A stretch of 64,000 nucleotides of DNA from an uncultured Spirochaetota bacterium (GCA_963734545.1 CAVTHO010000003.1:256001-320000); one strand, 5' to 3'; counted from the first letter of the stretch, positions 7,421 to 40,181 are shown. The notes: generated by a model not told the origin, from the sequence alone. Program-made: numbers and translations.

Positions 7421-8434
7421 ATGAAAGCCCTCTTCATCGGCGGCACCGGCCTGATCAGCTCCGCAGTGTCCCGGCTCGTCGTCGAGCGGGGAATCGAGCT
7501 CACCCTGCTGAACCGCGGTCAGAAGGGGGAGTTTTTCCCCCGGGGCGCGCGGCAGATCATTGCAGACCACAGTGATCCGAACGCGGTGAAGGAGGCGCTT
7601 CGCGGACAATCCTTCGACGTCGTCGCGGACTGGATCGCCTTCACCCCCGCGCAGGCCGCCCGGGACATCGAGCTGTTCTCCGGGCGCGCGGGCCAGTTCT
7701 TCTTCATCAGCTCGGCCAGCGCCTACCAGAAGCCGGCGACCCACTACCTCATCACCGAGTCGACGCCCCTGGCAAACCCCTTCTGGCAGTACAGCCGGGA
7801 CAAGATCGCCTGCGAAGAGCTTTTCCTGCGCGAGTACCGGGAAAGGGCCTTTCCGGTGACGATTGTGCGGCCGAGCCTCACCTACGGCGTCACCCAGATC
7901 CCCGCCGCGTTCGGGAGCTGGAACCACCCGTGGACGCTCGTGGACCGCATGCGGAAGGGCCGCCCGATCGTCGTTCCCGGAGATGGTACCTCGCTGTGGA
8001 CAATGACGCACAACTCCGACCTCGCGAAGGGCTTTGTCGGGCTGATGGGAAACATCCGCGCCATCGGCCATGCCTTCCACATCACGTCCGACGAGGTGCT
8101 GACCTGGAACCAGATCTACGGGCTCATCGGGGCCGCGGCCGGCGCGCAGCCCGACATCGTGCACGTCACTTCGGATTTCATCGCGGCGTTCGACCCCGAG
8201 GAACGCGGCAACCTCACCGGCGACAAGGCGCAATGCGGCGTCTTCGACAACTCGAAAATCAGGGCCTTTGTGCCGGGCTACACGGCCACGGTGCCCTTTG
8301 CGCAGGGCGTGCGGGAGTCGGTCCAGTGGTTCGAGAGGCACCCCGAGCGCTGCACGATCGATGACAGGTTCAACGCCCTCTCGGACCGCATTCTCGGGGC
8401 GCATCAGGCCGCGCTCGCTTCGGCGCGATCCTGA
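7421..8434 (+). CDS. NAD-dependent epimerase/dehydratase family protein
   Basis: MKALFIGGTGLIS, ISSASAY, YSRDK and VRPSLTYG motifs. Confidence 0.88.
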   Translation: MKALFIGGTGLISSAVSRLVVERGIELTLLNRGQKGEFFPRGARQIIADHSDPNAVKEALRGQSFDVVADWIAFTPAQAARDIELFSGRAGQFFFISSASAYQKPATHYLITESTPLANPFWQYSRDKIACEELFLREYRERAFPVTIVRPSLTYGVTQIPAAFGSWNHPWTLVDRMRKGRPIVVPGDGTSLWTMTHNSDLAKGFVGLMGNIRAIGHAFHITSDEVLTWNQIYGLIGAAAGAQPDIVHVTSDFIAAFDPEERGNLTGDKAQCGVFDNSKIRAFVPGYTATVPFAQGVRESVQWFERHPERCTIDDRFNALSDRILGAHQAALASARS

Positions 8435-8453
8435 CAGGGCCGGGAGGCGGGCT

Positions 8454-9315
8454 TTGGCTCCTGAAACCAGGAGGAACGCGCTGGTATTCCTTCTCATTTC
8501 CCTGATCCTGACCGTGCTGATCGGGGCAGGGTTGCCGCACCTGAAGTTCAAGCCCGGCATGCCGCTTCCCTCTTTTGAGAACGGCCAGGTGGCCCTGCCT
8601 GCAGAGGATGCCGCTCCGGTGGGCCTGCCGATGACTGCCTTTGCGGGAATCTTCTCCTTGATCATCCTGGCTGTACTCCTGGTTTTCCTGATCATCCAGG
8701 CGGTCAGGGGCGTCCAGTGGAAGAAGCTTTTATCGAGACTGTGGTCTTTCTTCTGGAAGCTCCTGCTCGTCATCCCCTTCCTTGTTCTGGTCCTGGCACT
8801 GCTGCCGAAGCCAGTGGGCGTTGCCCCCGCGGAACCACTGCCTCCCCCAAAACCTCTGGTAACCGCGCCGCTGGGCCGGGTGCCGACAGCTCTCATCTGG
8901 CTCGCGGGGCTCGGTCTGCTCGCCGTGATTCTCTACCTCGGCGCGCGGATGATCGCTGCAAAGCGCCGTCCCGGTCCCCGCTCCTGGGAGTGGGAAGCAG
9001 AAAAAGCCCGGCAGGCCCTCCTGGATGGCCAGGACCTCCGGGAGGTGATCATCCAATGCTACCGGCGCATGGGCCAGGCGCTCCAGGAGGAAAAGCAGAT
9101 CGAGAGGGAATCGTTCATGACCACCGGGGAGTTCGAGGTGCTGCTGTCCGCCCGGGGAGTCCCCCGTGACCCGGTCCACCAGCTGACACGGCTCTTCGAC
9201 GCCGTGAGATACGGTCGCGGCCAGCCGGCCCCCGGGGAGGAGCAGAGAGCCCTGCACTGCCTGGATGCCATCCTTGCGTACAGCCGCCAGTCGGGGCAAT
9301 CGAGGTGCAGGATGA
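8454..9315 (+). CDS. DUF4129 domain membrane protein; appears fused to the next gene, probably by an indel
   Basis: Several TM segments, then IIQCYRRM...MTTGEF...LTRLFDAVRYG. An ATGA stop/start overlap at 9312-9315 suggests two separate genes. TTG start inferred. Confidence 0.65.
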
Positions 9316-10014: not shown

Positions 10015-10969
10015 AACCGCCGACATATGCGCCCGGGTCATTCAGGAAGTCGAAAAGGCCGTTGTCGGCAAGCGGCCGGTGCTGGGCCTGATGATGGCGG
10101 CGCTGTTGTCCTCGGGCGGCCACATCCTTCTGGAGGACTTCCCCGGCCTGGCCAAGACACTGATCGCCAACAGCTTCGCCGCGGCCCTCGGGATGAGCTT
10201 CAAGAGGATACAATTCACTCCCGATCTTCTGCCCGGGGACATCACGGGCGGCTACGTATTCAACAGCAGCCAGAACCAGTTCATGCTTCGCAAGGGCCCG
10301 ATCTTCGCCAATATTCTCCTCGCAGACGAGATCAACCGGGCTTCCCCCAAGACCCAGTCCGCCCTGCTGGAAGCCATGCAGGAATACCAGGTGACCCTCG
10401 AAGGGGAAACCCAGGGGCTGCCGCTGCCGTTCATCGTCATCGCCACCCAGAACCCTATCGAGTACGAAGGCACTTTCCCCCTGCCCGAGGCCCAGCTGGA
10501 CCGTTTCTTTGTCAGGTTGTCGATCGGCTATCCCAATCCCGAAGAGGAAGACGAGATACTGAGGCAGCGCACGGAACGCAGGAAAGACAGCGTGGACCTG
10601 CAGGCAGTGGTCAGCCCGGAGGTCTTCATGGCAATGCGGGCGGCGGCGGAGGAGGTGTACGTGGATCCTGACGTCCGCCGCTACATCGTCGACCTGGTGG
10701 CAAAGACCCGGCAGCACCGCCAGGTCGTGGTCGGCGCCAGCCCGCGCGCGTCGATCGCGCTCCTGAAGCTGTCCAAGGCGTGGGCCGCCATCCAGGGAAG
10801 AGACTTCGTCCTGCCGGACGACATCAAGCCGTTCATCCAGCCGGTCCTTGCCCACCGCATCGTGCTGGACCCGACCCTGTGGGACGTCAAGACATCGGAC
10901 CGGGCAGTGATCGACGAGGTGATCCGCACCGTTCCCGTGCCGGTGCTCCCCCAGCGAAATGAACGATAA
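9983..10969 (+). CDS. moxR: MoxR-family AAA+ ATPase
   Basis: HILLEDFPGLAKT, RIQFTPDLLPGD, LADEINRASPKTQSALLEAM and ATQNPIEYEGTFPLPEAQLDRF motifs. Confidence 0.95.
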   Translation: MMQPKTIACRETADICARVIQEVEKAVVGKRPVLGLMMAALLSSGGHILLEDFPGLAKTLIANSFAAALGMSFKRIQFTPDLLPGDITGGYVFNSSQNQFMLRKGPIFANILLADEINRASPKTQSALLEAMQEYQVTLEGETQGLPLPFIVIATQNPIEYEGTFPLPEAQLDRFFVRLSIGYPNPEEEDEILRQRTERRKDSVDLQAVVSPEVFMAMRAAAEEVYVDPDVRRYIVDLVAKTRQHRQVVVGASPRASIALLKLSKAWAAIQGRDFVLPDDIKPFIQPVLAHRIVLDPTLWDVKTSDRAVIDEVIRTVPVPVLPQRNER

Positions 10970-12235
10970 AGTCCTCACCCTGGCCCTGCTCAGCGTCGGC
11001 CTTCTGGTGACCGCGCTGATGACCCAGAACGGCACGCTGGCCTTCATGACGCTGCCCGTCCTGGTGTACCTGGCAGTCGGGATACTGGAATCACCGCTCC
11101 CGGGGAAGATCCGGCTCACCGCGGAACGCTCTCTCGGGATCAGGCAGACCGAGGAGGGTGCGGCAGTCGAAGTGTGCGTCGCGGTCCGGAATACCGGATC
11201 CGCGCTCGGCCGGCTCAGGCTTTCCGACGAGCCTCTGCCCGCCATGGTCATCACGGAGGGCGCCCTCCGGCAGCTCGCCGATCTGAAATCCGGGGAAGAG
11301 ACGAAGCTCACCTACACGTTCCGGACCGCGCGCGGCGGCTTTCAATGGAATACGCTGCACGCGGCCGCGAGTGACCCGTTCGGCCTGTTCGAGATCGAGC
11401 TCCAGCTGCCCGCGGCCGCCGAGGTCCTGGTCCAGCCCCGGGTGAAGAGGTTTCGCTCTTTTCCGCTCCGGCCGGCAAGCACGCTGCATTCGCCGGGCTC
11501 GATCCCCGCCCGGATCGGGGGCAGCGGCACGGACTTCTGGGGCGTGCGGGAGTACCACGCGGGCGACCCGCTCCGCCGGCTGGACTGGCGCCGCACTGCC
11601 CGGCACCCGCGCCAGTTCTTTACAAAGGAGTTCGAGCAGGAGGAGATCGCCGATATCGGGCTGATCCTGGATGCGCGTCAAAGGAGCGATTTTCGCTGCG
11701 GTGAAGACTCTCTCTTCGAGCATACTCTCCAGGCAACAGCTTCCCTGGCTGAATTGTTCCTGCGGCACGGGAACCGCGTGAGCCTGGCCCTGCCGGGGAA
11801 CCAGATGACGATCGTGTACCCCGGATACGGCAAGGTCCAGTTGAACAGGATCCTGCACAACCTTGCGAAAGCGCGGCCCGCCGGGGCGCACGGGCAGCTC
11901 TCCCTGGACCAGGTACCCCTGCGCGTGTTTGGAAGCCGCGCCCTGATCGTGATCGTGAGCCCGCTCGCATTCGGCGATCTGCCCGTTTTCCCCCGACTGC
12001 GGGCGCGAGGCAACCAGGTCCTGCTCATTTCTCCTGATTGGATCACCTTCAGGAAAAGCAGTTCCCCCCCGGATCCGCCGGCCGGCTCGCCGTGCGCCTT
12101 GCCCGCATTGAACGCCGCCTGGAGCTGCGCGGCATTGCCCAGCTCGGCATTCACGTGATCGACTGGCAGGTTCACCGGCCGCTGCCGCCCCTGGTCCGGG
12201 ATGCGCTGGGCGCGGCGCGCGCGCGGCGCGGATGA
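10959..12235 (+). CDS. DUF58 domain protein (frameshift near 12050-12070)
   Basis: DPFGLF and FWGVREYHAGDPLRRLDWRRTAR...TKEFEQE motifs. C-terminus (...GIHVIDW) is in the 12038..12235 frame. Confidence 0.88.
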
Positions 12236-13506: not shown

Positions 13507-14544
13507 TCAGCCCGGTGACTTTCCCTGCCGGGAAAAGATCATGAGCGCCACCGGGAGATAGAGCACCAGAAGGATCACGAGAGGAGCGATCATCTGCCCC
13601 GGCGGGCGCTGGCCGATGAGCCCTCTGACCACGTAGGCGGCAATCAACAGGATGCCCATCAGGTTGTGCGCGCGGATCGTGAGCATGTTCGCCGGTGCCA
13701 TGGCAGCGGGGTTCATGTAGTTCCTGCGCAGCACGACGTATGCCTTTGCGAACAGCGGAAACGTGAGAAGGCTGACGTACGTCCAGAAGGTGGTCAGGCC
13801 GAGAATCGGGGAGACGAGGATGACGAGATACGCAATTGCCCCCGAGGCCCCATAGAGCCACACCCCCGCCTCGCGCCCGAACAGGACGACGAGGGTCCGC
13901 TTTCCTCCTGTCCCGTCGCTTTCCGAGTCGGGAATCTCGTTGATCGTGATCATGGCGAACATCATCAGGCCGAGAGGCAGAACGGCGAACACCGCTTCCC
14001 AGGAAAGCGCCCGGGTCTGAACGAAATACGATCCCAGGCCGATCACCACGCTGAAGTTGAGGAGCTGGGATACCTCGCCGAAGCCGCGATACGCGTAGCG
14101 AACCGGCGGTGCCGTGTAGAAATACGCGGACAGCACGCCGATGAGCCCGAACACGAGGACCGGCCAGCCGCGCGCCACGGTGAGGAACACCCCTGCCGCG
14201 ATGGTGAGAAAATACAGGGACAGGAACACGCCACGCATGTGCGCGGGCTTGATCGCACCCGATGTGAGAAGACCGCTGCCGCCCGAGTAGGGATTCTCGA
14301 TGTGACCCGCCGCGCGGTCCACGGACTGCTTGTAGTCGTAGTAGTCGTCGGTCATGTTGAGCGCCATGTGGTTCAGCGTGACGGCAAGGGTTACCACGAC
14401 GAAGTATCCAAGTGAAAACTCGCCGAGAATCGACCAGGCCACCACCGCTCCGAGAATGGCCGGCAGAGAGCTGGGGGGAACGAAATGGTATCGACAGGCA
14501 CGCCACCAGATCGCAAGCCTTTGGAAGGCCGTGTATGAGCCCAT
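13507..14544 (-). CDS. menA: UbiA-family prenyltransferase, MenA (DHNA polyprenyltransferase)-like
   Basis: NMTDDYYDYKQSVD, NPYSGGSG, YTAPP-YAYRGFGE and NEIPDSESDGTGGKRTLVV motifs, with many TM helices. Confidence 0.8.
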   Translation of the reverse strand: MGSYTAFQRLAIWWRACRYHFVPPSSLPAILGAVVAWSILGEFSLGYFVVVTLAVTLNHMALNMTDDYYDYKQSVDRAAGHIENPYSGGSGLLTSGAIKPAHMRGVFLSLYFLTIAAGVFLTVARGWPVLVFGLIGVLSAYFYTAPPVRYAYRGFGEVSQLLNFSVVIGLGSYFVQTRALSWEAVFAVLPLGLMMFAMITINEIPDSESDGTGGKRTLVVLFGREAGVWLYGASGAIAYLVILVSPILGLTTFWTYVSLLTFPLFAKAYVVLRRNYMNPAAMAPANMLTIRAHNLMGILLIAAYVVRGLIGQRPPGQMIAPLVILLVLYLPVALMIFSRQGKSPG

Positions 14545-14630
14545 TTGAGAACCTCCCTTTGAAAGAAATGATAATACACGCCGAATCGGGTTAGAAGAAC
14601 GGCCCCGGGTTCCTTCCGGAGCTTTTCCAC

Positions 14631-14675
14631 TTGACCCGGTCCCATGATGCTCATAGAATACATAGACTGTCTATG
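14631..14675 (+). promoter_or_regulatory. sigma70 promoter followed by a palindromic operator
   Basis: TTGACC-17bp-TAGAAT (14631-14659), then the palindrome CATAGACtGTCTATG (14661-14675). Confidence 0.7.
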
Positions 14676-14717
14676 CAAAGACAGGCTACGCCAAGCGGTA
14701 CCCCGCATGGAGGTGGT

Positions 14718-16007
14718 ATGTACGATGTCGTCGTGGTGGGAGCAGGCTGCGCGGGCCCTGCAGCCGCCCGCAAGGCAGCGGGCCTGGGACTGCGAACCCT
14801 CCTGATAGAGAAAGCGCTGCACCCGGGTGCCAAGAACGTCTCCGGCACCTGTCTGAACACTGCCGCGCTCGCCGATCCGGACCTGCACTATCTCCTCGAG
14901 GGCCCTGTCGAGCGGGAGATCCGCTCCATGCGCACATACCACGTGAGCGCGGGGCGTACCACCGTGTTTCACGAGATACCTGCCCGCGGAATCCTCCTTC
15001 TCTCGATCCGCAGGGACCATTTCGACGCGTGGCACACCGAGCAGGCGCGCAAGGCAGGGGCCGAGGTGAAGCTGGGGTCCGCCGTGGTGGACCTCGTCGA
15101 GGAGCACGGCGCCGTGTGCGGCGTGGTGACCGACAACGGCGAACGCCACATGGCGCGGGTCGTCATTGACGCGGGCGGCGTGAACTCGCTGGTCGGCCGC
15201 AAGGCGGGGCTGATCGGACGGAGAAGCGGGACGGACATGATCCTGTATGTCAGCGTCGCGGTGCACCTGGGAAAGAGGCGCGTGGACGAACGGTTCGGCG
15301 ACACCATCGAGTACTACCTGGCCCCCGGATGCCAGCACAAGACGTGGCCGTGGATCTTCCCCAAGCGCGAGGTGATCACCCTCGGCACGGGCGGCTACAT
15401 GACGGCGGAGCTCATCAACAAGGACTTCCCGTCGGTCAATACGTACATGCAGAACTTCATGGACCTGCCGCCGGTCCGCGCGCGCCTGGAAGGGGGAAGA
15501 ATCGTCAACTGGGGGGTACACCTCGAATACGACGAGCCGGCGGCCGTGAGGGTACGCGACGGGTTGATCCTTTCCGGAGAGGCGGGAGGCTTTGTGACGC
15601 CTTTCCTCGGGGAGGGCATGCCGGAAGCTTTTTTCACCGGCATTTACGCGGCGGAAGCGGCCGCGAAGGCTGTCGAGGCGAACGACACGTCCGCCGCGCG
15701 CCTGCAGGGCGCGTACGAGGAGCGGCTCGATGGCAACCTCTTCATGAAGTCCTTCATGTACGTCGCGGCATGCAACAAGGCGTCGATCCTTTCCCGGTCG
15801 GACGTCGAGACCTCGACCATGATGCAGAGCGTGGCAATGGGGGGAGGATTCATCACGAGCGCCGTGCACGGCGGATGGATGGCCGCTGCGGAAGACGGGG
15901 ACATCGAAAAGGTGAGGCAGGCACGGGACTTCCTCGAGCTCCTGCAGCCCTACCGCACCATCGGGGCGGACTTCGAAGAGATCTATGAGGCGAGGAAAAG
16001 AAAATGA
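14718..16007 (+). CDS. FixC / geranylgeranyl-reductase-family FAD oxidoreductase
   Basis: YDVVVVGAGCAG, EKALHPGAKNVSG (FixC-like), RDHFDAW, WIFPK and GEAGGFVTPFLGEGM motifs. GGAGG RBS. Confidence 0.85.
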   Translation: MYDVVVVGAGCAGPAAARKAAGLGLRTLLIEKALHPGAKNVSGTCLNTAALADPDLHYLLEGPVEREIRSMRTYHVSAGRTTVFHEIPARGILLLSIRRDHFDAWHTEQARKAGAEVKLGSAVVDLVEEHGAVCGVVTDNGERHMARVVIDAGGVNSLVGRKAGLIGRRSGTDMILYVSVAVHLGKRRVDERFGDTIEYYLAPGCQHKTWPWIFPKREVITLGTGGYMTAELINKDFPSVNTYMQNFMDLPPVRARLEGGRIVNWGVHLEYDEPAAVRVRDGLILSGEAGGFVTPFLGEGMPEAFFTGIYAAEAAAKAVEANDTSAARLQGAYEERLDGNLFMKSFMYVAACNKASILSRSDVETSTMMQSVAMGGGFITSAVHGGWMAAAEDGDIEKVRQARDFLELLQPYRTIGADFEEIYEARKRK

Positions 16008-16265
16008 AGCTGGAAATGCGGGTTCGTTCCTACCCGGGGGAGACGGGAGAGTTCCTCGAGGTCGATGAGGCGCGGTGCAGCGGGTGCGGCGAATGCGCCC
16101 GGTTCTGCGTCCGCGGCGTCTGGCAGAGGGACGGGGCGGTGTATCGTCCCAGTCGTCTCTCCCTCTGCGCCGAATGCGGCGCGTGCTGGAACATCTGCCC
16201 CGCGGATGCCGTGCATTTTCGGCGAGCCTCGCGGCGGCACGGGGATCCGCTTCACGCACGGTTGA
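16004..16265 (+). CDS. FixX-like 2x[4Fe-4S] ferredoxin (1-nt frameshift near 16217)
   Basis: CSGCGECARFC and CAECGACWNICP. The FixX-type tail EPRGGTGIRFTHG lies in another frame. Confidence 0.8.
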
Positions 16266-16278
16266 GAGGAGGCAGCAG

Positions 16279-16620
16279 ATGGCAACTCGACAGGAAGTGC
16301 TCGATACCCTGAAGGCGCAGGGTGAAAGGTTCCATCACGAAAAAATCGTTTCCTCGTTCAAGGGATGGAGCAGGGTCATGCAGTACCGTTTCCCCGACCT
16401 CGACCTCTCCCTTGCTCTTCCCGTCACGGAGGGCATGGCCGGCGCCGTGGTGGAAGGAACGGTCGAGGGGGCGCAGATCGTGTACGAGATGTCCAGCGAC
16501 ACGTTCCTTGCCATCGCCCGCAAGGAGCTGAGCGGGATGAAGGCATTCACGCAGAAGCTCGTCAAGGTGAAGGCATCCATGCCGGACCTCATGAAGCTGC
16601 AGAAGCTGGATTCGGTCTGA
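16279..16620 (+). CDS. Stand-alone SCP2 (sterol carrier protein-2) lipid-binding domain protein
   Basis: MSSDTFLAIARKELSGMKAFTQKLVKVKASMPDLMKL matches the SCP2 C-terminal pattern. AGGAGG RBS. Confidence 0.75.
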   Translation: MATRQEVLDTLKAQGERFHHEKIVSSFKGWSRVMQYRFPDLDLSLALPVTEGMAGAVVEGTVEGAQIVYEMSSDTFLAIARKELSGMKAFTQKLVKVKASMPDLMKLQKLDSV

Positions 16621-16673: not shown

Positions 16674-19600
16674 TCACTCCTGGGTGTGAATGGGCCCCCG
16701 CCACGCGGCCAGGTCCTCGACGTACTGACGGTAGTCCTCGAATCCCGCATCGAGACCGTACTGATAGACGAAACTGCTCGCAATGCTGCGGGCGAGGATG
16801 GCCCTCTGGTAGCTCTCCGGGAGCCGGTTCATGAGCCCTTCCAGGCCGACCTTGTCCACGAGGGCGGCGGGCACGTGCATGCGGAGGGAGTTCCTGCGCA
16901 CGGCGTCATTGGCAAAGAGAGTCGAACGCTCTATGGCGATCGTGATCTCATTGATCTTTCTGCTGACCGTCTCGGACAGCTCGGAGAGGGGCGCGCCGGT
17001 CGCGGCGCGGGTCTTCCACAGGAGGTCGAACTCCAGGTCCGCTTTCCGCCGTATGGCCTCGAGGACCTCCTCGATGTACCGCTCGCGGAATGCCGGCGCC
17101 GCTGATCCCGGGCGCACGGTCATGAGCTGATCGTGCTCATCGTCCGCGAGGCCCAGGCCGGCGAGAACCTCGAAAGAGGAGGAGATGACGCCGCCCTTGT
17201 TCGTGGAGCTGTCCTTGAAGAGAACGACTCCCTTCTCCTCGAGCTTCAGCCGTGCCTCCTGGGTGATGAAAAGGTTTGCGCCTTCCACGATCCAGCGGAA
17301 GAGGGGCCGGCCCTCCGCATCGATCAGCGAGCGCCAGTTCGAGAGATTGATCGACTTCGGTCTCCCGCCGCAGGGCACGAAGAGATCGGCCTTCATGCGA
17401 GGGTCCAGGTGGAACGTGTTGCGGAACCCCAGGCCGGATGCCACGCGCGTCCCGTCGGGCAGCGTCACGTCATGGTCCTTCACGCCGACCAGGAAACCCC
17501 TCGGTCCGAGCCGCGCGCGGTCGAAATGCGAGCTGTCACTGCCGGTGCGCGCCAGGCGCGCGAGCTCGTCCCGGGGCAGGCCGTCAGGATCATAGAGGAC
17601 GCCTCCCCCGTCCACGAGGGCGATGGTCTTGTCCTTCGAGATGAGGATCTCGTTGGAGCCGAGGTCCCCGTCAGGCCCGCCCGTCTGCGCCTTCCTGATC
17701 GTCTCCTCGGAGATCCCCAGCTCGCGGAGGATTCCCAGGACGTAGCGGTGAATGCCCTGGGTTGTCATGCCGTATTCCTTGTGCGAGATTCCTCCGAGAT
17801 TCGCTTCCTTGCCCGTCGTCACGGCCTTCCAATAGCGGTACCCCCGCTCGCGGGCGCGCAGGCACGCCCAGTCCATGAAGTCCGCCGTGCCTTCGTCCGG
17901 GCCGAAAAAGAGGATTTCCTCCTCCCAGCCGACTATGGTCTTGCTGTCCCCGGGGACGAGCAGGTCGAGCAGGGCATCGATGTAGCAGCGGAACGCCTGG
18001 CGGGCGTCCTCGCGGCTGGTGCCGAAAGCCGGCAGGATGATCCCCTTCGAGCCCCCCTCCGGGATGTCCTTGTTCTTCTTGTTCTGGGTGAAGGCGAGGT
18101 TGTAGCACTCCTCGAACAGCGAGTCCGCATTGTGGTGGTACTCGTCGTACGTGGCCGCGTGCAGGAGACGGATGCCTCCGCGCGCGATGTCCTTGAAGCG
18201 CACGTGGAATCCGTGGAAATCGCGGCCGACAACGAAGAACACGCCGAAGGGCACGCTCTCCATTGCGGCGCGGGAGAAGAAGCCGCTTGCCAGGCGGAAC
18301 GAGAGGGCTGATTTCACCGGCAGGAAGAAATTCGTCCGTACGATGGCATCCACGAAGCGCACCGAGCAGCGGATCACTTCCGCCTCCTCGGAGGTGAGGG
18401 TGGAGGAGGCCAGGACCGCGTCCAGTCGGGCGCGGGCGCTCCTCTCCGCCTCCGGATCCTGGTCCCCCGGGGTGAATCGGGCCGTGAACAGGCCGAAAAG
18501 GTCGTGGACGATATCCGGTCTCTCCCTGTACACCTGTTCGATGACCGCCAGTGGATACATGTCGCGGTCGATGCGCGCCTGGATCGAGGCCAGGATTCCC
18601 GAGAGCTCCCTGTCAGAATGGAAACGCTCGGAGAGGAGGCCGATGTCGGGATCCGGCACCGTGATGAACTGGTGGATGAAGGGAACCGCCGCATTCACGA
18701 AGTTCGCCTCGGCCGGCGAGTAGGTCCCCTTTTCCACGAGCGCGCCGATCTGCCCCGGCGGGTACAGGCTGACCTCCACGAGCTGGCGAAGAAGGTCCGC
18801 CGGGAAATCCGTCCGCGCATAGAGGGTCGCGACGATCACGGGCCGGGCTCCCCCGAAGGTCACCGTGTACTTCCGCGTGAGCTCGATCCCGTTCCTCGCC
18901 ATGACCCGGGTGATGTTCGCCTGGAAATGATTGATCCTTCCGCGGGGGAACCCGATCATGACCCTGTTCTCCCGGGTCTCCGCCTTGAGGGAATGCGCGA
19001 TCACAATGCTCCCTGTCGAGAGCACGGCGTCGCGCACCGCGACATAGCGCTCCCGCGCGGCGGAGTCGGTGAGACTGAGGAAGCTGGCAGGGGCGATTTC
19101 ACCGATCGTCTCGCCCTGCTGCGGATCGGAGCCGCGGTACACCACGTACAGGAGCAGGTTCGCCAGCGGCGAATAGACGGCGACGTTCAGAAGGCGCCCG
19201 CCGGCGTAGTATTCCCGCTCGATCTCCTCCTCCACCTCGAGGCCCCGGCGGCGGTGCACCCAGTGGACGGACGTGCCGTCGGGCGAGGTCGAGGATACCT
19301 TCATCTGCGCATAGGTCTCGGAGTCGAGACCGGAAAGCTCATAGGAGCGGTTCAACATGATCTGGCGCGCCATGAGCGGGGCGGGGGTGTTCCGAAGATA
19401 GTACTCGGGGAATTTCAGATCCGTCAGCCACCACTTCATCTCCTGAAGGATGCGCTCTTCGGTGAGATCGGCGATCTGGGTGTAATCCTCGGTGCTCCCT
19501 TTGCAGGAGATTTCGTCGTAGACCTGCGAGAGGAAATCCGGGTCGAGCCCCGTCCGCGCCTGAATGACGTCGAGAACGACTCTCCGCGGATACAGGACCG

Positions 19601-19865
19601 CGCGGGACAGCTCTTCCTCCGTGAGGGAAGGCTTGTGCGTGAAGAGGCGGATCCCCTCCGCTTCAGGTCTCGTCGTATCCACCAGCCACAGGAAGCGGGA
19701 AATGATGACTCGGAGGTCCAGGCACGAGCACAGCCAGGCCTTCTTCAAAGCCCGCGCGCAATGCTCACGGCTGAGGGGAAGGGGATCGGGGAGGCGGTTG
19801 AGCCATCCTTCGAGCAGGTTCTGCTGCTCCTTTGAAAATGTCCGCTTCTCTTGCGACACAGGCAT
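16674..19865 (-). CDS. Large NAD-specific glutamate dehydrogenase (~1060 aa, GDH2-like)
   Basis: GFHVRFKDIARGGIR, KNKDIPEGGSKG, FFGPDEGTA, QTGGPDGDLGSNEI, VEGANLF and NKGGVISSSFEVL motifs. GGAGGAG RBS. Confidence 0.9.
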   Translation of the reverse strand: MPVSQEKRTFSKEQQNLLEGWLNRLPDPLPLSREHCARALKKAWLCSCLDLRVIISRFLWLVDTTRPEAEGIRLFTHKPSLTEEELSRAVLYPRRVVLDVIQARTGLDPDFLSQVYDEISCKGSTEDYTQIADLTEERILQEMKWWLTDLKFPEYYLRNTPAPLMARQIMLNRSYELSGLDSETYAQMKVSSTSPDGTSVHWVHRRRGLEVEEEIEREYYAGGRLLNVAVYSPLANLLLYVVYRGSDPQQGETIGEIAPASFLSLTDSAARERYVAVRDAVLSTGSIVIAHSLKAETRENRVMIGFPRGRINHFQANITRVMARNGIELTRKYTVTFGGARPVIVATLYARTDFPADLLRQLVEVSLYPPGQIGALVEKGTYSPAEANFVNAAVPFIHQFITVPDPDIGLLSERFHSDRELSGILASIQARIDRDMYPLAVIEQVYRERPDIVHDLFGLFTARFTPGDQDPEAERSARARLDAVLASSTLTSEEAEVIRCSVRFVDAIVRTNFFLPVKSALSFRLASGFFSRAAMESVPFGVFFVVGRDFHGFHVRFKDIARGGIRLLHAATYDEYHHNADSLFEECYNLAFTQNKKNKDIPEGGSKGIILPAFGTSREDARQAFRCYIDALLDLLVPGDSKTIVGWEEEILFFGPDEGTADFMDWACLRARERGYRYWKAVTTGKEANLGGISHKEYGMTTQGIHRYVLGILRELGISEETIRKAQTGGPDGDLGSNEILISKDKTIALVDGGGVLYDPDGLPRDELARLARTGSDSSHFDRARLGPRGFLVGVKDHDVTLPDGTRVASGLGFRNTFHLDPRMKADLFVPCGGRPKSINLSNWRSLIDAEGRPLFRWIVEGANLFITQEARLKLEEKGVVLFKDSSTNKGGVISSSFEVLAGLGLADDEHDQLMTVRPGSAAPAFRERYIEEVLEAIRRKADLEFDLLWKTRAATGAPLSELSETVSRKINEITIAIERSTLFANDAVRRNSLRMHVPAALVDKVGLEGLMNRLPESYQRAILARSIASSFVYQYGLDAGFEDYRQYVEDLAAWRGPIHTQE

Positions 19866-19936
19866 CTCCTCCCCCAAGTATGCCCCAATGCTTCCTCGAT
19901 CAGAAGAGGCCGGTCGCGACCGCTGGAACAGTCGGC

Positions 19937-20233
19937 TCACCGGAACTCCTCGCACGACCAGACTCCGCCCGGAGGCTTGGGGAATGTGCAGGTTGGCCTG
20001 TTGTCACACAGGGGGCAGAGCCCCGGCTCGTGCTCAGGTGGAGCCGCGTCATCCCTCTTCAGGTGGGTAAAGGCCCCTGCCCGGACTTCCTCGTGCAGAC
20101 TCTCACCCTCGAACTCCATGCACTGCACGACGGGCACTCCCGGCTTCCGCGGGAATGTGCACAGCGGATCACTGCTGCACGTTGAGCACAAACCGACGTA
20201 GTCCATTCTGGCGCGTTTGACGCTTTTTGGCAT
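19937..20233 (-). CDS. Small Cys-rich protein with two copies of GLCxxCxxxxxCTFP...CxEF
   Basis: GLCSTCSSDPLCTFP...CMEF and GLCPLCDNRPTCTFP...CEEF. GAGGAGG RBS before the ATG at 20233. Confidence 0.75.
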   Translation of the reverse strand: MPKSVKRARMDYVGLCSTCSSDPLCTFPRKPGVPVVQCMEFEGESLHEEVRAGAFTHLKRDDAAPPEHEPGLCPLCDNRPTCTFPKPPGGVWSCEEFR

Positions 20234-32427: not shown

Positions 32428-34665
32428 ATGAAGGTCTCTTGCAGGAAGTCCCTTCTGCTTGTCGTCGCCTTGACGGCCGTGGTGATGATCGCGGGCTGTC
32501 CGCTCCCCTTCGAGTATAACGGCCCGGGCACGGGCACCTCCCACACCACAGATCCGAGCAGCCCCAGCATAACAGCCCCTGTGACGGTGTCCTATTCCGT
32601 GCAGGGCGGGCCATCGGGGACCGTCGGGGACGGCGGTACCTTCTATGCGGGCGACACGATGACCGTGACCCTGTCCACCGCCACGGTGAGCGCTCTCATC
32701 TTCTATACCGACGACGGGACTCCGCTCGCCCTCACCGGCCTGGGCTCGGCCAAAAAGATAAGCGCGTCGAGCGGAGAGATCACGATCACCCGGGCCACCT
32801 CTCTCCAGTCCCTGGACATTCACGCCATTGCGATCGGCCCCAATATGCTGCCCAGTGCGGTTGTCCACGCGATTGTGGGTGTCAGCCCCTACCCGATCCT
32901 TTCGATCACCCGGGACAACGCTTTCGCGAGCGAGGATGGGGGAACGGCGACCTTCACCATTACCTCCTCCAGCGCTCCGGCCAGTGACATCACCGTGAAC
33001 CTCGCGACCAGCGGCGACTATGAGTCGGGCGACGTGGCCGGCCTCCCCGCGTCGGGCTCGCCTCTCTCCGCGACGCTCCTCGCAGGCGCGACCACGATCA
33101 CTATTCCCATCACCGGGCAGCCGGATGCTGACCTCGTCAACGATACGGTCACCCTGATGCTCCAGGCCGGCTCGACAACGCCCCCTCTCTACACGGTTGG
33201 CGCGCCCGCGAGCGCGAACGTGGTGATTCAGGACAACCAGACGCCGAAGTACACGGTGACGTACGACGGCAACGGAAACACCGGCGGAAGCGTCCCGACG
33301 GACAGCAACAGCTACCTGCAGGGAGCGCCAGTTACCGTCAAGGGCAACACGGGCAGCCTGGTCAGGACAGCCTATGCCTTCACAGGCTGGAACACCCAAG
33401 CCGGCGGTGGCGGGACAACGTACACTGTTGGGGCAACTTTCCCGATGGGTACATCAAATGTGACCCTGTACGCGGTCTGGACGCCGACCTACACGGTGAC
33501 GTACAACGGGAACCTGAGCACCGGGGGCACAGTGCCGACCGACAGCAACAGCTATCTGTCCGGCGCAACGGTCACCGTGAAGCTTCCTGGCACAATGGTC
33601 AGAGCCGGATTCACCTTCAACGGGTGGAATACGGCTGCCGATGGGACCGGCACTCCTCGTGCCGCCGGCTCCACCATGACGATGGGATCGGCAAACGTAA
33701 CCTTGTACGCCATGTGGATAAGATATTTCGTGACGTACAACGGCAATGGAAATGACGGCGGCGGGGTGCCGATCGACGGCAATGGCTATCCCGCGGGCGG
33801 GACCGTGGCGGTTCTCGGTGCGGGCACTATGTCGCTCAGCACGGGCTTCTTCGTGGGCTGGAATACCGCCGCAAACGGGTCAGGAACAACCTATCTGGGC
33901 GGTCAGACGTTCACGATGGGCTCCGCAAACGTGACTCTCTATGCGATGTGGGCCATAGTGACCGGTACGACGCTCACCTCTGTTCCATTGAATGCGACGA
34001 ACGTCGTGGTTCCTGAAGGCGTCACGGACATTGGCACTGCCCTCAGGGATCTTCCCAACCTGGTCAGCGTGACCCTTCCGTCCACTCTTGCCACCGTCAC
34101 CCTTCAGGCCTTGTACGTGTGTCCCCAGCTGACCACGATCATCAGCAACAGCACGCGATTCCAGGTCATCAACGGGGCGTTGGTCGATACTGCAGCCAAC
34201 AGACTCATTCAGGTTCCCGTAAAGCTGAGCGGCGCATTTGCCATTCCCGCGGGAGTGACAAACATCGACGCTTACGCCTTCGGCGACTGCGCGAATCTCA
34301 CCAGTATCTCGATTCCCGCCTCCCTGACGACGATCAGCGGCAATGGCTTCTCCGGTCTGCACAGCTATATTCCTATTGTCCTTCCCTCTACGGTCACGAA
34401 CATCGGTGCCTACGCCTTCATATACAGCTGGGTCACGAGCATCACCATTCCCGCGAGCGTCACCTTCATCGGCACGAAAGCCATGGCAGGCAGCACGTAT
34501 CTCACGAATGTCTACATGGCAGCGAGCACCCCACCCACGCTTGGCGCGGCTGACGTGTTTTCTTCGTCCTCCCCGACCGTCCATGTGCCCACCGCCGCCG
34601 CGGTGGCCGCCTATCAAGCTAACGCGAACTGGGCTGCGAGCGGAGTCTCGATCGTGACCCCGTAG
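32428..34665 (+). CDS. Surface lipoprotein B: same N-terminal half as A, then 3 Listeria-Bacteroides (Flg_new) repeats and BspA-type LRRs
   Basis: Lipobox VMIAGC; three YxVTYxGN...GWNT...TLYAxW repeats; IPAGVTNIDAYAFGDC and LPSTVTNIGAYAF. Confidence 0.88.
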   Translation: MKVSCRKSLLLVVALTAVVMIAGCPLPFEYNGPGTGTSHTTDPSSPSITAPVTVSYSVQGGPSGTVGDGGTFYAGDTMTVTLSTATVSALIFYTDDGTPLALTGLGSAKKISASSGEITITRATSLQSLDIHAIAIGPNMLPSAVVHAIVGVSPYPILSITRDNAFASEDGGTATFTITSSSAPASDITVNLATSGDYESGDVAGLPASGSPLSATLLAGATTITIPITGQPDADLVNDTVTLMLQAGSTTPPLYTVGAPASANVVIQDNQTPKYTVTYDGNGNTGGSVPTDSNSYLQGAPVTVKGNTGSLVRTAYAFTGWNTQAGGGGTTYTVGATFPMGTSNVTLYAVWTPTYTVTYNGNLSTGGTVPTDSNSYLSGATVTVKLPGTMVRAGFTFNGWNTAADGTGTPRAAGSTMTMGSANVTLYAMWIRYFVTYNGNGNDGGGVPIDGNGYPAGGTVAVLGAGTMSLSTGFFVGWNTAANGSGTTYLGGQTFTMGSANVTLYAMWAIVTGTTLTSVPLNATNVVVPEGVTDIGTALRDLPNLVSVTLPSTLATVTLQALYVCPQLTTIISNSTRFQVINGALVDTAANRLIQVPVKLSGAFAIPAGVTNIDAYAFGDCANLTSISIPASLTTISGNGFSGLHSYIPIVLPSTVTNIGAYAFIYSWVTSITIPASVTFIGTKAMAGSTYLTNVYMAASTPPTLGAADVFSSSSPTVHVPTAAAVAAYQANANWAASGVSIVTP
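32460..33238 (+). repeat. Copy 2 of the ~780-bp direct repeat
   Basis: Near-identical to 29484..30265. Confidence 0.95.
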
Positions 34666-34707
34666 GGGTGATCAGCTGATGAACGCAGCTGCTGAAGGCA
34701 AAACGCC

Positions 34708-35439
34708 CTATCTTCTCTGCGCGGATATCTTGATGCTATAGCGATCGCTGCGGATGAATAATTCTGACAGAAGAACTGGAAGGCCTCGTTTATCGTGTAC
34801 GATCGTTCTGACATGCAAGAGGGGGTGGCCCTGGCGGCAGGAAAGGGTCTTGGCAAGCTGCGGAGTTGCCAGAATCGCCCTGACATCCTTCTCACCGTAG
34901 AGCAGGGCTATTCCGCTTGACTCCAGCTTGACGAACAGGGACTCGTTCTCGCCCAGCTCGGAAATCCGGGCCTGTTCGGCAATCGCCAGCGGCAGGAAAG
35001 TGTCGTCGCGCAGCAACACTTCATTGTCTACGTAGCGGATGCGTTGGAGGTGATGAATCGACGGCGCGGTCTGCTGAAGGTCCCGCGCCACATTGGGGAG
35101 ATCCACAACCTCGTTTGCCCTGACGACAGATCGGACCACCCGCCCTTGAGACTCCATTTCTTCGCTCAGCCCGGCGAGGTGCTCTTGATTACGGACGATC
35201 TGACGTTTGGCCGCAAAAGTACCTATCCCTCGCTCTTTGTACAACACGCGCTCGTCGGCGAGTTCGTCCAGGGCTTTGCGCAAGGTCATCCGGCTGACGC
35301 CGTAGAACGCTACAAGCTCGACCTCAGTTGGGATCTTTGCGCCGACCACCCACTCCCCGGAGTTGATCCTGGAAATAATGTCCTCTTTGATTTGGAAGTA
35401 CGCCGAAATGCCCTTCTTGAACGAAATACCAGATTTCAT
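34708..35439 (-). CDS. GntR-family regulator, HutC/UTRA subfamily
   Basis: YFQIKEDI, IPTEVEL-YGVSRMTLRKAL, RGIGTF and a UTRA-type C-terminus. Confidence 0.92.
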   Translation of the reverse strand: MKSGISFKKGISAYFQIKEDIISRINSGEWVVGAKIPTEVELVAFYGVSRMTLRKALDELADERVLYKERGIGTFAAKRQIVRNQEHLAGLSEEMESQGRVVRSVVRANEVVDLPNVARDLQQTAPSIHHLQRIRYVDNEVLLRDDTFLPLAIAEQARISELGENESLFVKLESSGIALLYGEKDVRAILATPQLAKTLSCRQGHPLLHVRTIVHDKRGLPVLLSELFIRSDRYSIKISAQRR

Positions 35440-35466
35440 GGCAGGGTCCCCATATAGGCGAAAAGC

Positions 35467-36537
35467 TTATTCACCAGAGTCCGCACCTTGCAGTATCCCT
35501 GCTATATCGGCAGGCGTCGGCAGCGAAGGAATAACGCCTTCAATCTGCACTGCGTGCGCAGCGGCGGCTGAAGCGTAATCACCGATTGTCCGCAACTCAT
35601 TCGTGTCCAGCCGGGCGCCGCGGAGATTGGCTTTCAGAGAAATGGTTCTCGCCAGGAGGGCAGCCATATAGGCATCCCCGGCGCCTGTCGTGTCCACGAC
35701 ACGCTCTTCCGGCACTTTGGCGGCAGCGATGCGCTCATAAACAGTTCGCGAGCTGGCCAGAATTGAGCCCTTGCGCCCGTCGGTGAGTGCCAGGAGTCGC
35801 AGGTTGGGTGCATAGTCAAAAATCGCTTCCCAACGTGCGTTCTGAGCGCGGCTGTTGTGCAACACGAACTCCAATTCTCTCACATCAATCTTCAGTATGT
35901 CTACTAGTCGCAGTAGTCTGCGAATCTCCCATTGCGCTTCTGAGGAAGTCCGCCATAGACTTGCCCGAAGGTTGACATCGAAAGCGACTTGCACACCAGC
36001 GCGGCGCGCATAGTGCACCGCGGAAAAGCAGGTGGTTCGCAACGGCTTGGCCACGAGCGCCATCGAGCTCGTATAGAGGACGTGAGCGTTTCGGAGCGTG
36101 CGGAGAGGTACGTGCTGCCGGGCCAGGTAGGTGTTCGCGCAGGGGTGACGAAAGAACACATACTCAGGTACCCGCTGGGCATTCAGCGAGATGAACGCGA
36201 TCCCAGTTCGGCGTTTGGGATCTCGACTGACTGACGCCGTCCCGACGTTGAGAGTCTGCATGGTTTCCAGCAGAAAATCGCCAAAGGGATCGGTCCCTAG
36301 TCGTGTGACAATGCAGGCCGTCTTGCCGAGTCGCGACACTCCGGCGGCGACATTCCCTGCTGATCCTCCTGGGTACCGTCTGAACTGGATCGCTTCGGCA
36401 AGCCGCTGTTGCCCTGACGCAATGAAGTCGACCATCAATTCACCAAGGCACACCACATCGAACCGTTCGTTTCCTTCTGCAGGGATCCCGGTGACCTTTA
36501 CCCCAGACAGGGGAGCATCGGCCGTGTTGTTTCCCAT
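35467..36537 (-). CDS. PfkB-family carbohydrate kinase
   Basis: GELMVDF, PGGSAGNVA, FDVNLR and VVDTTGAGDAY motifs. Confidence 0.9.
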   Translation of the reverse strand: MGNNTADAPLSGVKVTGIPAEGNERFDVVCLGELMVDFIASGQQRLAEAIQFRRYPGGSAGNVAAGVSRLGKTACIVTRLGTDPFGDFLLETMQTLNVGTASVSRDPKRRTGIAFISLNAQRVPEYVFFRHPCANTYLARQHVPLRTLRNAHVLYTSSMALVAKPLRTTCFSAVHYARRAGVQVAFDVNLRASLWRTSSEAQWEIRRLLRLVDILKIDVRELEFVLHNSRAQNARWEAIFDYAPNLRLLALTDGRKGSILASSRTVYERIAAAKVPEERVVDTTGAGDAYMAALLARTISLKANLRGARLDTNELRTIGDYASAAAAHAVQIEGVIPSLPTPADIAGILQGADSGE

Positions 36538-36587
36538 CCGCTTGTCTCCGCTCTGTTCACGATGATAGCCTTGCGTTCAACAGCCTC

Positions 36588-37289
36588 TTAGAAAAGATCC
36601 GCCCAATTCTCCCTGTTGTTGAAAGCAGCGGCGGTCTCTTCCAGGATCATATGCCCGGTCTTCATTACATAAACTCGATCCGATACTCGTAATGCCTGAG
36701 GTATGTTCTGCTCAACAAGCAATATGGCAGTTCCAAGGCTCTGCCGAATCTGAAGCAGGGTATCCATCAGCACCCCGACAAGGTGAGGCGATAGCCCCAA
36801 CGAGGGCTCATCCAGGAACAACAACTGTGGATTCGTGATCAGCGCCATTCCTATGCCCAACATGCGCCTCTCTCCCCCGCTCAGGGTCGAGGAATTCTGC
36901 CCCTGTCTCTCTTCCAATATTGGAAACACGCCATATATGTCCTTCAATCTGCTCGGAATATCAGCCACTCGCACGGTATAGGCCCCCAGCTCCAGATTCT
37001 CTCTGACGGTCAAACCCGGAAACGTGAATCTCTCCTGTGGTATGAAGCTGATCCCGTCTTTCACGTTGTCCCGCGGTGATCGCTGCGTGATGACCGTTCC
37101 GTTGAAGACCACGCTTCCTGAAAGCGGAGGCAGGATTCCGAAAACACTCGCCAGGGTTGTTGTCTTTCCCGCGCCGTTGTGTCCAAGAATGGAAACGATC
37201 TCGCCCTTGTCGATACCCAGGGACACACCATCAATCACGATTCGCTTCCCGTAGCCCGCCCGGAGGTCATTGACTTCCAACAACACCAT
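36588..37289 (-). CDS. livF: LIV-type ABC transporter ATPase (LivF-like)
   Basis: GHNGAGKTT, LSGGERRML, LDEPSLGL and LLVEQN motifs. Confidence 0.9.
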   Translation of the reverse strand: MVLLEVNDLRAGYGKRIVIDGVSLGIDKGEIVSILGHNGAGKTTTLASVFGILPPLSGSVVFNGTVITQRSPRDNVKDGISFIPQERFTFPGLTVRENLELGAYTVRVADIPSRLKDIYGVFPILEERQGQNSSTLSGGERRMLGIGMALITNPQLLFLDEPSLGLSPHLVGVLMDTLLQIRQSLGTAILLVEQNIPQALRVSDRVYVMKTGHMILEETAAAFNNRENWADLF

Positions 37290-37295
37290 CGTCTC

Positions 37296-39032: not shown

Positions 39033-39059
39033 GCACTCTTCCTCTTGCTCCGGGTACTT

Positions 39060-39935
39060 CTATTTCCTGGGCTCGAAAATTCCCTGTGGCCTGACAAGCA
39101 CGATCAGGATGAGGATCGCGAACGTGATGACGATCTGCCATTGAGATGGTATGAAAACCAGGGGCACGTTTTGCGCAAGCCCAAGGAGGATGCCGCCCAC
39201 CACTGCGCCGGCGATGCTGCCGACTCCTCCCAGAAAGGTGACAATAATGCAGGAGAAGAATGGAGCCATGCCCATACTCGGAATAACGGCTCCCCCAAGA
39301 GAATAGAGAACTGCAGCGACAGCCGCCATTCCCGATCCCAAGCCGAAAGTCAGCAGGAACGTCCGGTTCTTGTTGATACCAATGATCTCGGACATTGTCG
39401 GGTTGCATGCAACAGCCCGCATTGTCTTGCCGGCCCCGCTCCGCGCCAGGTATATCTTGAGGGATAGAATAACGAGTCCGCTCAAGGCTATTTTGAGCGC
39501 CTGCGTGCTGTCAAATGCGATACCGCCGAAATTGAGGGACCTTGTCGTGAAGCCGCTGATTGTGCGATAGTTGGCACCGAACGCGAGCTGAATGAGGCTT
39601 TGCCCCAGGATCGCCGTTCCCATTGCCGATACAAAGATGCTGAATTGGGTGGCACCCAGCCGCCTGAGCGGAGAATAGATCCCACGCTCGATGAGGTATC
39701 CCACGGCGACTGCCGCCAGAATTGCCGCGAAGAAGCCTGCTGCGAGAGGAAGGCCCAGATTCGTTGTCGCGAACACGGCTGCGTATGCTGCAGACGTGAT
39801 AACGAGAATGTGCGCGAAATGGAATGTTCCCGTCGTGCTGTAGATGAGGCTCCAGCTCAGTCCGAAGAGAGCGTACAGCATTCCGCTTGAAAGCCCGTTC
39901 AACGCAAACTGCGCCAGCAGCATTGGCATCTGCAT
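39060..39935 (-). CDS. livH: LIV-type ABC permease (LivH-like)
   Basis: NGLSSGMLYAL, FHFAH, GKTMRAVA, LGGVGS and RPQGIF motifs. Confidence 0.9.
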   Translation of the reverse strand: MQMPMLLAQFALNGLSSGMLYALFGLSWSLIYSTTGTFHFAHILVITSAAYAAVFATTNLGLPLAAGFFAAILAAVAVGYLIERGIYSPLRRLGATQFSIFVSAMGTAILGQSLIQLAFGANYRTISGFTTRSLNFGGIAFDSTQALKIALSGLVILSLKIYLARSGAGKTMRAVACNPTMSEIIGINKNRTFLLTFGLGSGMAAVAAVLYSLGGAVIPSMGMAPFFSCIIVTFLGGVGSIAGAVVGGILLGLAQNVPLVFIPSQWQIVITFAILILIVLVRPQGIFEPRK

Positions 39936-40147: not shown

Positions 40148-40181
40148 CCCTGCTGCCTGCAATGCACTGCTGGCAGCAGGG
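40148..40181 (-). terminator. Hairpin after the solute-binding protein gene (mRNA stabiliser/attenuator)
   Basis: CCCTGCTGCC...GGCAGCAGGG 10-bp stem in a ~300-bp intergenic gap. Confidence 0.45.

Follow-up and report, generated by a model that had tools for sequence, protein, structure and literature searches.

We analyzed a 64,000-nucleotide stretch of DNA from an uncultured Spirochaetota bacterium (GCA_963734545.1, CAVTHO010000003.1:256001-320000; hereafter "the window"), focusing on a locus at positions 13507 to 16620 in which a gene for a flavin adenine dinucleotide (FAD) flavoprotein of the geranylgeranyl reductase (GGR)/FixC superfamily is followed by genes for a FixX-type ferredoxin and a stand-alone SCP2 protein (together, "the trio"). 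An initial annotation of the window had combined the trio with a divergently transcribed MenA-like prenyltransferase gene into a candidate quinone-making or quinone-tailoring module. Our gene calls confirm all four genes of that annotation, as well as the 173-bp divergent gap between the ATG codons of the prenyltransferase and flavoprotein genes. The features of the locus are as follows:

13507-14544, minus strand: MenA-like UbiA prenyltransferase, 345 amino acids (PF01040, 87.4 bits); a divergent neighbor that lies outside the cassette by comparative evidence
14631-14659, plus strand: sigma-70-like promoter of the trio (TTGACC, 17 nucleotides, TAGAAT; 10 of 12 consensus positions)
14664-14687, plus strand: 9-bp inverted repeat between the promoter and the ribosome-binding site (AGACTGTCT, 6 nucleotides, AGACAGGCT)
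14718-16007, plus strand: FAD flavoprotein of the GGR/FixC superfamily, 429 amino acids, predicted catalytic subunit, from an isolated clade
16004-16265, plus strand: FixX-type ferredoxin with two [4Fe-4S] clusters, 86 amino acids in homologs; the open frame as assembled runs to 16312
16279-16620, plus strand: stand-alone SCP2 protein, 113 amino acids (PF02036, 26.6 bits; cut-off 21.3)

The starts of homologous proteins and a GGAGG Shine-Dalgarno sequence place the flavoprotein start at the ATG at 14718, not at the TTG at 14631. The ferredoxin ATG overlaps the flavoprotein stop codon by four nucleotides (ATGA), and a GAGGAGG ribosome-binding site precedes the SCP2 start. The true SCP2 gene is that at 16279-16620, and not a 181-amino-acid open reading frame (ORF) from 16075. 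The GC content of the cassette region is that of the genome. Contigs from two other wetland sequencing runs (X1 record 5 and X3 record 21) span the prenyltransferase-flavoprotein junction, so the juxtaposition of these two genes is real in the population, and we rejected a misassembly at this point on the strength of these independent bridging contigs.

To define the conserved unit, we compared loci encoding the flavoprotein from three sources. A scan of one genome per species gave 24 loci (3 spirochaete-titled and 21 archaeal-titled, nearly all from Asgard lineages); a metagenome scan gave 23, of which one (34% identity) was dropped; and a set of relatives gave four, one of them the same record as locus L006. 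We counted linkage only at loci with sufficient flanking DNA, which for upstream counts meant at least 1.3 kb. The ferredoxin gene follows the flavoprotein gene in 23/23 genome loci, 4/4 loci from relatives, and 11/12 metagenome loci, and the SCP2 gene follows in 21/22, 3/4, and 11/11, respectively. A MenA-like gene lies upstream in 0/23, 0/4, and 0/14. The unit is a three-gene operon of flavoprotein, ferredoxin, and SCP2 protein, whose members are translationally coupled and inherited as a group, and not a set of four genes.

Two kinds of exception to the SCP2 linkage were seen. At the Heimdall locus L024, as at the identical metagenome locus L087, the SCP2 gene lies 2.5 kb further on, past a duplicated ferredoxin gene; at L024:8287-11370 the ferredoxin copies occupy 8287-8547 and 10757-11023, and about 2.2 kb of opposite-strand ORFs separate the first copy from the SCP2 gene. 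Two spirochaete loci (L025:8545-9900 and, in genome G013, L042:1-1244) have no recognizable SCP2 gene downstream of the flavoprotein-ferredoxin pair, and in G013 an ORF of 398 amino acids or longer occupies the SCP2 position. Beyond the trio, gene content varies by lineage: the neighbors encode a P-type ATPase, an M20 peptidase, a glycosyltransferase, PAC2, and others in Asgard archaea, and a kinase/GNAT protein, a histidine kinase, ClpB, an oxidoreductase, and a methyltransferase in spirochaetes. None of these neighbors is shared between lineages, and they point to no substrate or pathway.

The 173-bp region between the divergent genes had been described as a shared control region. We found that the TTGACC hexamer is invariant in 6/6 spirochaete-clade loci with differing upstream genes, and that the 9-bp inverted repeat and the ribosome-binding site are likewise common to these six loci. 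Since these elements are conserved despite the differing upstream genes, most of the "shared control region" belongs to the trio, and the promoter and leader accompany the trio whatever gene stands upstream. Together, the promoter and repeat resemble a cis-regulatory element carried along by the cassette. In the repeat, 87% of cells pair across the two arms, versus 30-44% with the partner arm slid; covariation between the arms is not significant in these six sequences, with 62 of 500 shuffles reaching the observed value. The repeat may act as an operator or form a hairpin in the leader. In the window, only one tRNA reached the gathering score of an Rfam family, and the 173-bp region gave no credible Rfam match.

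The comparative data also separate the trio from the prenyltransferase. The adjacency seen in the window recurs at 0/41 other loci, including those of the closest relatives (87% and 79-80% identity). Among 40 relatives, prenyltransferase orthologs (73-87% identity) occur in G001, G006, G014, and G023, a set disjoint from that of the trio carriers, so that the two are found together only in the source genome; the neighbors of the orthologs in the four relatives are mutually unrelated. A MenA-like gene is present in 4/5 trio-bearing spirochaete genomes, with none above cut-off, and G038, which is 97% complete and carries the trio, has no MenA-like match at E 1e-10. The titles of close prenyltransferase homologs name KSB1, Calditrichaeota, Zhuqueibacterota, and Smithellaceae, a phyletic pattern unlike the Asgard and spirochaete distribution of the trio. 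The linkage to menA on which the initial annotation was built is thus not borne out by co-occurrence.

The identity of the prenyltransferase is itself less definite than its first label. Like MenA and UBIAD1 it is a UbiA-fold membrane prenyltransferase; its translation contains both Asp-rich motifs, and among solved structures it matches UBIAD1 alone (E 3.7e-9). In NCBIfam it matches MenA models best, but every curated MenA cut-off is missed: the best match, MenA PRK06080.1-1 (NF004749), scores 154.1 bits versus a cut-off of 277, and TIGR00751 scores 89.5 versus 102.15. The genome also has no recognizable naphthoquinone head-group route. We found no match to MqnA/D in the source genome, which at 89% completeness leaves their absence unproven, and in the same 89%-complete assembly neither MenB (best 68.6 versus 342.7) nor MenD (best 69.7 versus 244.2) rises above cut-off. 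Naming this gene menA is premature.

These data allow us to weigh a model in which the adjacent MenA-like enzyme makes a quinone or other prenylated aromatic and the trio saturates the prenyl chain of this product, with the SCP2 protein carrying the intermediate. The divergent pair is only 173 bp apart at a junction bridged by contigs of related strains in two runs, and the source genome, with UbiA paralogs at L001-L004, encodes three MenA-like paralogs as well as heme o synthase and a quinol-using cytochrome bd. The SCP2 protein matches UbiJ-SCP2, among others, in fold, and the GGR superfamily contains menaquinone-specific prenyl reductases, such as the A. fulgidus enzyme mentioned in the available text of PMC10821996. 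Set against this are the lack of adjacency at other loci and the disjoint distributions, the G038 genome, the differing titles of prenyltransferase homologs, the assignment of promoter and leader to the trio, and the missed cut-offs for MenA, MenB, MenD, and MqnA/D. MenJ is a menaquinone prenyl reductase within the GGR superfamily, and on the MenJ model (NF045655) the window flavoprotein scores 51.4 bits versus a cut-off of 700. We consider this model very improbable. In the source genome, the trio has landed beside a MenA-like prenyltransferase, and nothing shows that they act jointly. As a side observation on respiratory genes, the source genome has two cydA copies, one of them in two frames (G000:C5:472931-474235 and G000:C8:809812-811090).

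The flavoprotein defines an isolated family. At E ≤ 1e-30 we found only 22 matches among 1.84 billion cluster representatives; the whole trio clade corresponds to one full-length 50%-identity representative, and identity falls to 43% and 37% for the relatives that come next. No paralog of the flavoprotein was found in the source genome. We built a 114-row tree with FastTree, from which representatives shorter than 330 or longer than 520 amino acids were excluded and in which P0117, P0124, P0125, and the next 70 representatives in listed order were kept. The trio clade has 100% support in this tree, with the two nearest relatives, P0124 and P0125, as its sisters, and lies apart from the classical GGRs. 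It also falls outside a canonical FixC clade of 34 rows that contains E. coli FixC and has 99% support; grouping with canonical FixC, which the initial annotation had named as an outcome that would tell against its proposal, is therefore not what the tree gives. The placement of the trio clade among intermediate groups is not fixed, and FastTree is prone to joining long branches.

Comparisons with solved structures relate the flavoprotein to two known types of enzyme. The closest solved protein is 3oz2, the digeranylgeranylglycerophospholipid reductase of Thermoplasma (sequence E 1.4e-29; profile E 1.3e-37), followed by FixC of the Thermotoga EtfABCX complex, 7koe (sequence E 1.5e-16; profile E 9.6e-27). 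Foldseek comparisons of the predicted structure gave template modeling (TM) scores of 0.71/0.77 with 3oz2 and 0.71/0.70 with 7koe, and chain 7koe_C ranks second among the structural matches (E 7.5e-27). In an alignment of 12 sequences, the FAD-binding GxGxxG motif (GAGCAG) and the RxxFD motif (R98-R99-D100-x-F-D103) are invariant, and the latter region aligns with ERDKFD of 3oz2.

A GGR-like feature is an invariant loop, W210-P-W212-I-F214-P215-K216 ... G223-T-G225-G226, that aligns with the YIWVFPK...GIG catalytic loop of 3oz2. The GGR catalytic motif is named in the available text of PMC10821996 as (P)xxYxWxFP followed by GxG, and the loop of the trio flavoprotein is a variant of it that carries W where the motif has Y, and H where the motif begins with P. 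No GGR-type loop is present in the aligned T. maritima (7koe) and E. coli FixC sequences, and a motif scan of the tree rows found it in no row of the canonical FixC clade. At the level of single residues, this family is a hybrid, with a FixC-like N-terminal stretch (GxKNVSG) and a GGR-like loop.

The FixC-like features raise the alternative that the flavoprotein-ferredoxin pair is a FixCX-type module, which would pass electrons from electron transfer flavoprotein (ETF) or ferredoxin to a membrane quinone or soluble acceptor without saturating any chain, while the SCP2 protein holds the quinone. The FixX-type partner, the gene order and 4-nucleotide overlap as in E. coli fixC-fixX, the N-terminal GxKNVSG stretch, the position of the trio clade nearer to FixC than to classical GGRs, and the match to 7koe_C all fit this idea. 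It is countered by the exclusion of the trio from the canonical FixC clade, by a FixC model (NF007542) score of 101.6 bits versus a cut-off of 610, and by retention of the loop that the aligned FixC sequences do not have. Genomic context points the same way. A tblastn search with the source genome's own EtfB and EtfA found no ETF homolog within the window, and there is no ETF gene in 51 trio loci (482 kb). The coupled operon without a nearby etf gene that the initial annotation described therefore stands, with its gene order kept in nearly all loci.

The sole etfAB pair found in the source genome is on a different contig, and etfAB genes are present elsewhere in 10/10 trio-bearing genomes checked, the source genome included; this co-occurrence favors a FixCX-type module but is of little weight, since only carriers were counted. 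One Heimdall carrier also has a separate etfAB-like pair directly adjoining a different GGR/FixC-superfamily paralog (G041:C15:407974-411444), in what looks like a separate FixABC-like cluster. Considering both sides, we find a FixCX-type module without chain saturation unlikely. In a separate observation, the source genome's EtfA-like protein (G000:C8:822313-823831) has an N-terminal ferredoxin-type CxxCxxCxxxC stretch.

The trio ferredoxin contains two complete CxxCxxCxxxC motifs, with all eight cysteines invariant. Its homologs (n=12) are 86 amino acids long and end in EPxGGTGVxFxYG, and the PxGGxGVxFxYG tail is almost invariant across the 11 intact homologs. The protein aligns end to end with E. 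coli FixX, C-terminal tail included (27% identity, E 7e-4), while the NCBIfam FixX model is absent from its matches. E. coli FixX has lost the first cluster motif, whereas the trio ferredoxin keeps both.

In the window, similarity of the ferredoxin to its homologs ends at residue 72, and the tail (GEPRGGTGIRFTHG-stop) sits in another frame. The T-run at 16216-16219 has one base above what the ferredoxin frame requires. We aligned contigs of four wetland metagenome runs onto the region; two of them, X1 and X2, cover the frameshift site, and both (2/2) have one base fewer, left out at 16215. The X1 and X2 contigs differ from the window at 16 of 1115 and 27 of 1163 bases, respectively, and so represent close relatives, not the same strain. 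Because these relatives' contigs lack the extra base and one cydA copy of the genome is likewise split between frames, we consider an assembly indel more likely than a true pseudogene.

The predicted structure of the SCP2 protein has a predicted local distance difference test (pLDDT) score of 89.2, and its top Foldseek matches are the putative SCP2 protein AF_1534, alkylsulfatase SCP2 domains, a human SCP2-like protein, and UbiJ-SCP2. In all, 46 PDB chains match the model at E ≤ 0.001, and those listed are nearly all SCP2 proteins or domains; a sequence search of solved SCP2 proteins gave a weak result (best E 0.38). The solved relatives include binders of sterols, fatty acids, and alkyl chains. 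UbiJ and UbiT provide the idea of a soluble SCP2 carrier that presents a polyprenylated molecule to soluble enzymes. The trio protein shares their SCP2 fold, with UbiJ-SCP2 structures 6h6o and 6h6p matching at E 2e-5, and differs from them in folding closest to AF_1534 and the alkylsulfatase domains and in having no linked ubiquinone or menaquinone genes.

The trio is found in two domains of life. Flavoprotein copies from Asgard archaea and a small number of spirochaetes share 58-87% identity, and public data hold many relatives at 61-89% identity, of which the named ones are Spirochaetia/Spirochaetales or Heimdall-, Prometh-, and "Asgard group" archaea; the sources of the trio are wetland and sediment metagenomes. 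We detected the flavoprotein in 43/400 Asgard-phylum genomes sampled and in 0/400 genomes drawn across the source phylum. Among the 40 relatives it is present in four (G013, G019, G024, and G038), corresponding to 2/20 of the same genus, 1/4 of the same family, and 1/16 of the same order. The trio is an accessory trait, patchily distributed in Asgard archaea and one spirochaete order.

This patchy distribution argues against a core role in membrane lipids. Asgard carriers have 6-9 superfamily paralogs, of which the others are 19-27% identical to the trio flavoprotein and have no adjoining FixX-like or SCP2 gene. We considered the trio flavoprotein as the main membrane-lipid GGR of Asgard archaea and rejected this role, because the trio is limited to 43 of the 400 Asgard genomes and several of the 6-9 paralogs outscore its flavoprotein on the GGR model.

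A 43-row IQ-TREE phylogeny places the window copy with other spirochaete copies (support 98/96). The G038 copy is nested within a group rich in Heimdall copies (97/99). L029, the third spirochaete placement, branches separately; the base of the trio clade is a polytomy. In an approximately unbiased (AU) test, a single clade of the seven bacterial rows was rejected (log-likelihood difference 54.1, p 0.00024), with the group chosen by taxonomy, though after the tree was known. Since both the tree and the AU test show that the bacterial copies are not one clade, the cassette has crossed between domains at least twice. The direction of transfer is clear only for G038, from archaea to bacteria. Separately, near-identical flavoproteins occur in differently titled Asgard bins (L007 and L023, titled Odin and Hod; L008 and L010, titled Hermod and Prometh; branches of about 0.01-0.03), which suggests either very recent exchange or contig mis-binning.

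Overall, we favor with moderate confidence a reading of the trio, drawn from sequence comparison and from analogy with known systems, as a self-contained, ferredoxin-fed reductase of isoprenoid chains that has a dedicated lipid carrier and has moved between domains at least twice. The FixX-type subunit would accept low-potential electrons through its two [4Fe-4S] clusters, either from a ferredoxin pool or from ETF. These electrons would pass to the FAD of the flavoprotein, as the FixX-FixC arrangement in 7koe and the ferredoxin-dependent GGR of Methanosarcina suggest by analogy, and the reduced flavin may then saturate a C=C bond of a prenyl chain held, as motif conservation suggests, by the WxWxFP...GxG loop. 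The fold and strict linkage of the SCP2 protein are consistent with a role in extracting, solubilizing, or presenting the greasy substrate or product. Possible substrates compatible with this scheme are polyprenols, quinone side chains, and scavenged isoprenoids. Of the initial proposal, a ferredoxin-dependent reductase acting on an SCP2-presented lipid is still the best reading, while the quinone module built around menA is not supported.

Several observations weigh against this assignment as an isoprenoid reductase. On the GGR superfamily model TIGR02032 (GG-red-SF), the window flavoprotein scores 142.3 bits, below the cut-off of 158.8; its Asgard orthologs straddle that cut-off at 149.7-160 bits. 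The position of the GGR LxGD motif reads L-x-G-E, with E288 near-invariant, and in the profile alignment the invariant Cys45 (SGTCLN) misses the catalytic Cys47 of GGR by two positions. FixC is the closer resemblance for both the N-terminal GxKNVSG stretch and the FixX-type partner, and a 98%-supported group in the FastTree phylogeny holds the trio clade together with canonical FixC, away from the classical GGRs. The flavoprotein model, built from 12 sequences, has a mean pLDDT of 75.9, with low confidence over the C-terminal 70 residues. Moreover, the presence of etfAB in all ten carriers checked leaves room for an ETF donor or a FixCX-like role, and the absence of SCP2 next to the pair at L025 and L042 means that this component may be dispensable.

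An alternative that overlaps with the isoprenoid-reductase reading, and departs from it only in what the substrate is and where it comes from, is that the trio reduces a hydrophobic compound other than the cell's own isoprenoids, for catabolism or as an electron sink. Such a compound might be a plant or algal lipid scavenged in anoxic wetland sediment, for instance phytol, a carotenoid, a sterol, or an unsaturated hydrocarbon. A foreign substrate would suit the patchy accessory distribution in both domains, the lack of conserved biosynthetic neighbors, the wetland and sediment origin of the genes, and a carrier whose solved relatives bind sterols, fatty acids, and alkyl chains; GGRs are also promiscuous in vitro, according to the available text of PMC9385802. 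Yet no transporter, regulator, or catabolic gene is linked to the trio, the catalytic loop is of the prenyl-reductase type, and nothing favors a particular substrate. We judge a foreign substrate of this kind to be improbable.

A bolder version of the favored reading is a three-component "lipid hydrogenase", in which the SCP2 protein would pull a polyprenyl or another isoprenoid lipid from the membrane or from scavenged material and hand it to a soluble, FixX-fed reductase. We regard this as doubtful, but if true, it would make SCP2 a conserved working partner of a prokaryotic lipid-modifying enzyme, and one unassigned archaeal GGR paralog would gain a defined, portable function that bacteria borrowed at least twice.

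The closest precedent for a ferredoxin-fed GGR is the Methanosarcina acetivorans pair MA1484-MA1485, in which GGR requires the ferredoxin encoded next door, as described in the available text of PMC9385802, PMC12042123, and PMC10821996. As judged from these published descriptions and from the 3oz2 structure, the trio resembles the archaeal systems in its FAD superfamily and catalytic loop and in the adjoining gene for a small [4Fe-4S] protein as presumed electron donor. It differs from archaeal GGRs in forming its own clade, in scoring below the family cut-off, in having GE for the GD of LxGD, and in its shifted cysteine; and from the archaeal pairs in that its ferredoxin is of the FixX type with a conserved tail and is joined by a third gene, SCP2. 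With FixCX (E. coli fixC-fixX; T. maritima 7koe), the trio shares an overlapping ferredoxin gene, a ...PRGxxGVxFxxG tail, the GxKNVxG stretch, and 29% flavoprotein identity to E. coli FixC, and it differs in clade, in the absence of adjoining etfAB across the 51 loci, in the prenyl-reductase loop, and in the SCP2 partner. Uncharacterized archaeal GGR paralogs (Ta0326-Ta0327 and Ttx_0732), compared here through their description in the available text of PMC10821996, likewise combine a FixC-superfamily protein with a ferredoxin-like gene; some of those loci include ETF subunits, which trio loci never do.

The trio apparently belongs with the ferredoxin-dependent GGR-type reductases, with the SCP2 partner and the spread between domains as its new features. 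A literature search found no paper that combines geranylgeranyl reductase, or FixC and FixX, with SCP2, and no description of the trio, in agreement with the initial annotation, which had not recognized the system as one already described. In the available main text of the GGR-multiplicity review PMC10821996, supplements aside, the terms "Asgard" and "sterol carrier" do not occur. The cultured Lokiarchaeon MK-D1 has one SCP-2 homolog, according to the available text of PMC12139934. Most sources title the trio flavoproteins "Electron transfer flavoprotein-quinone oxidoreductase"; this label and that of a "menA operon" are probably wrong here.

The abundance of archaeal GGR paralogs with unassigned substrates is an acknowledged open problem in a 2024 review (PMC10821996, available text). 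Our analysis sharply defines one such paralog as an isolated, conserved clade that always has its own FixX-type ferredoxin and almost always SCP2. The trio is small and self-contained, making it amenable to expression in isoprenoid-making E. coli, and the cassette shows cleanly that Asgard archaea and spirochaetes of sediments or wetlands share genes.

Two further features of the window lie outside the trio. Convergent to it is a gene for a 1093-amino-acid large NAD-type glutamate dehydrogenase (ELFV_dehydrog, Bac_GDH_CD; 16674-19955, minus strand), which is not kept next to the trio in relatives. Further along, positions 34000-50000 have a GC content of 0.55-0.58, versus about 0.63-0.66 elsewhere in the window. 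This segment encodes a PfkB kinase, a branched-chain-type ABC transporter with a fused permease-ATPase, amidohydrolases, the alpha and beta subunits of an E1 dehydrogenase, and three CoA-transferases, with a tRNA-Leu gene (48894-48978) at its end, and may be an acquired catabolic island.

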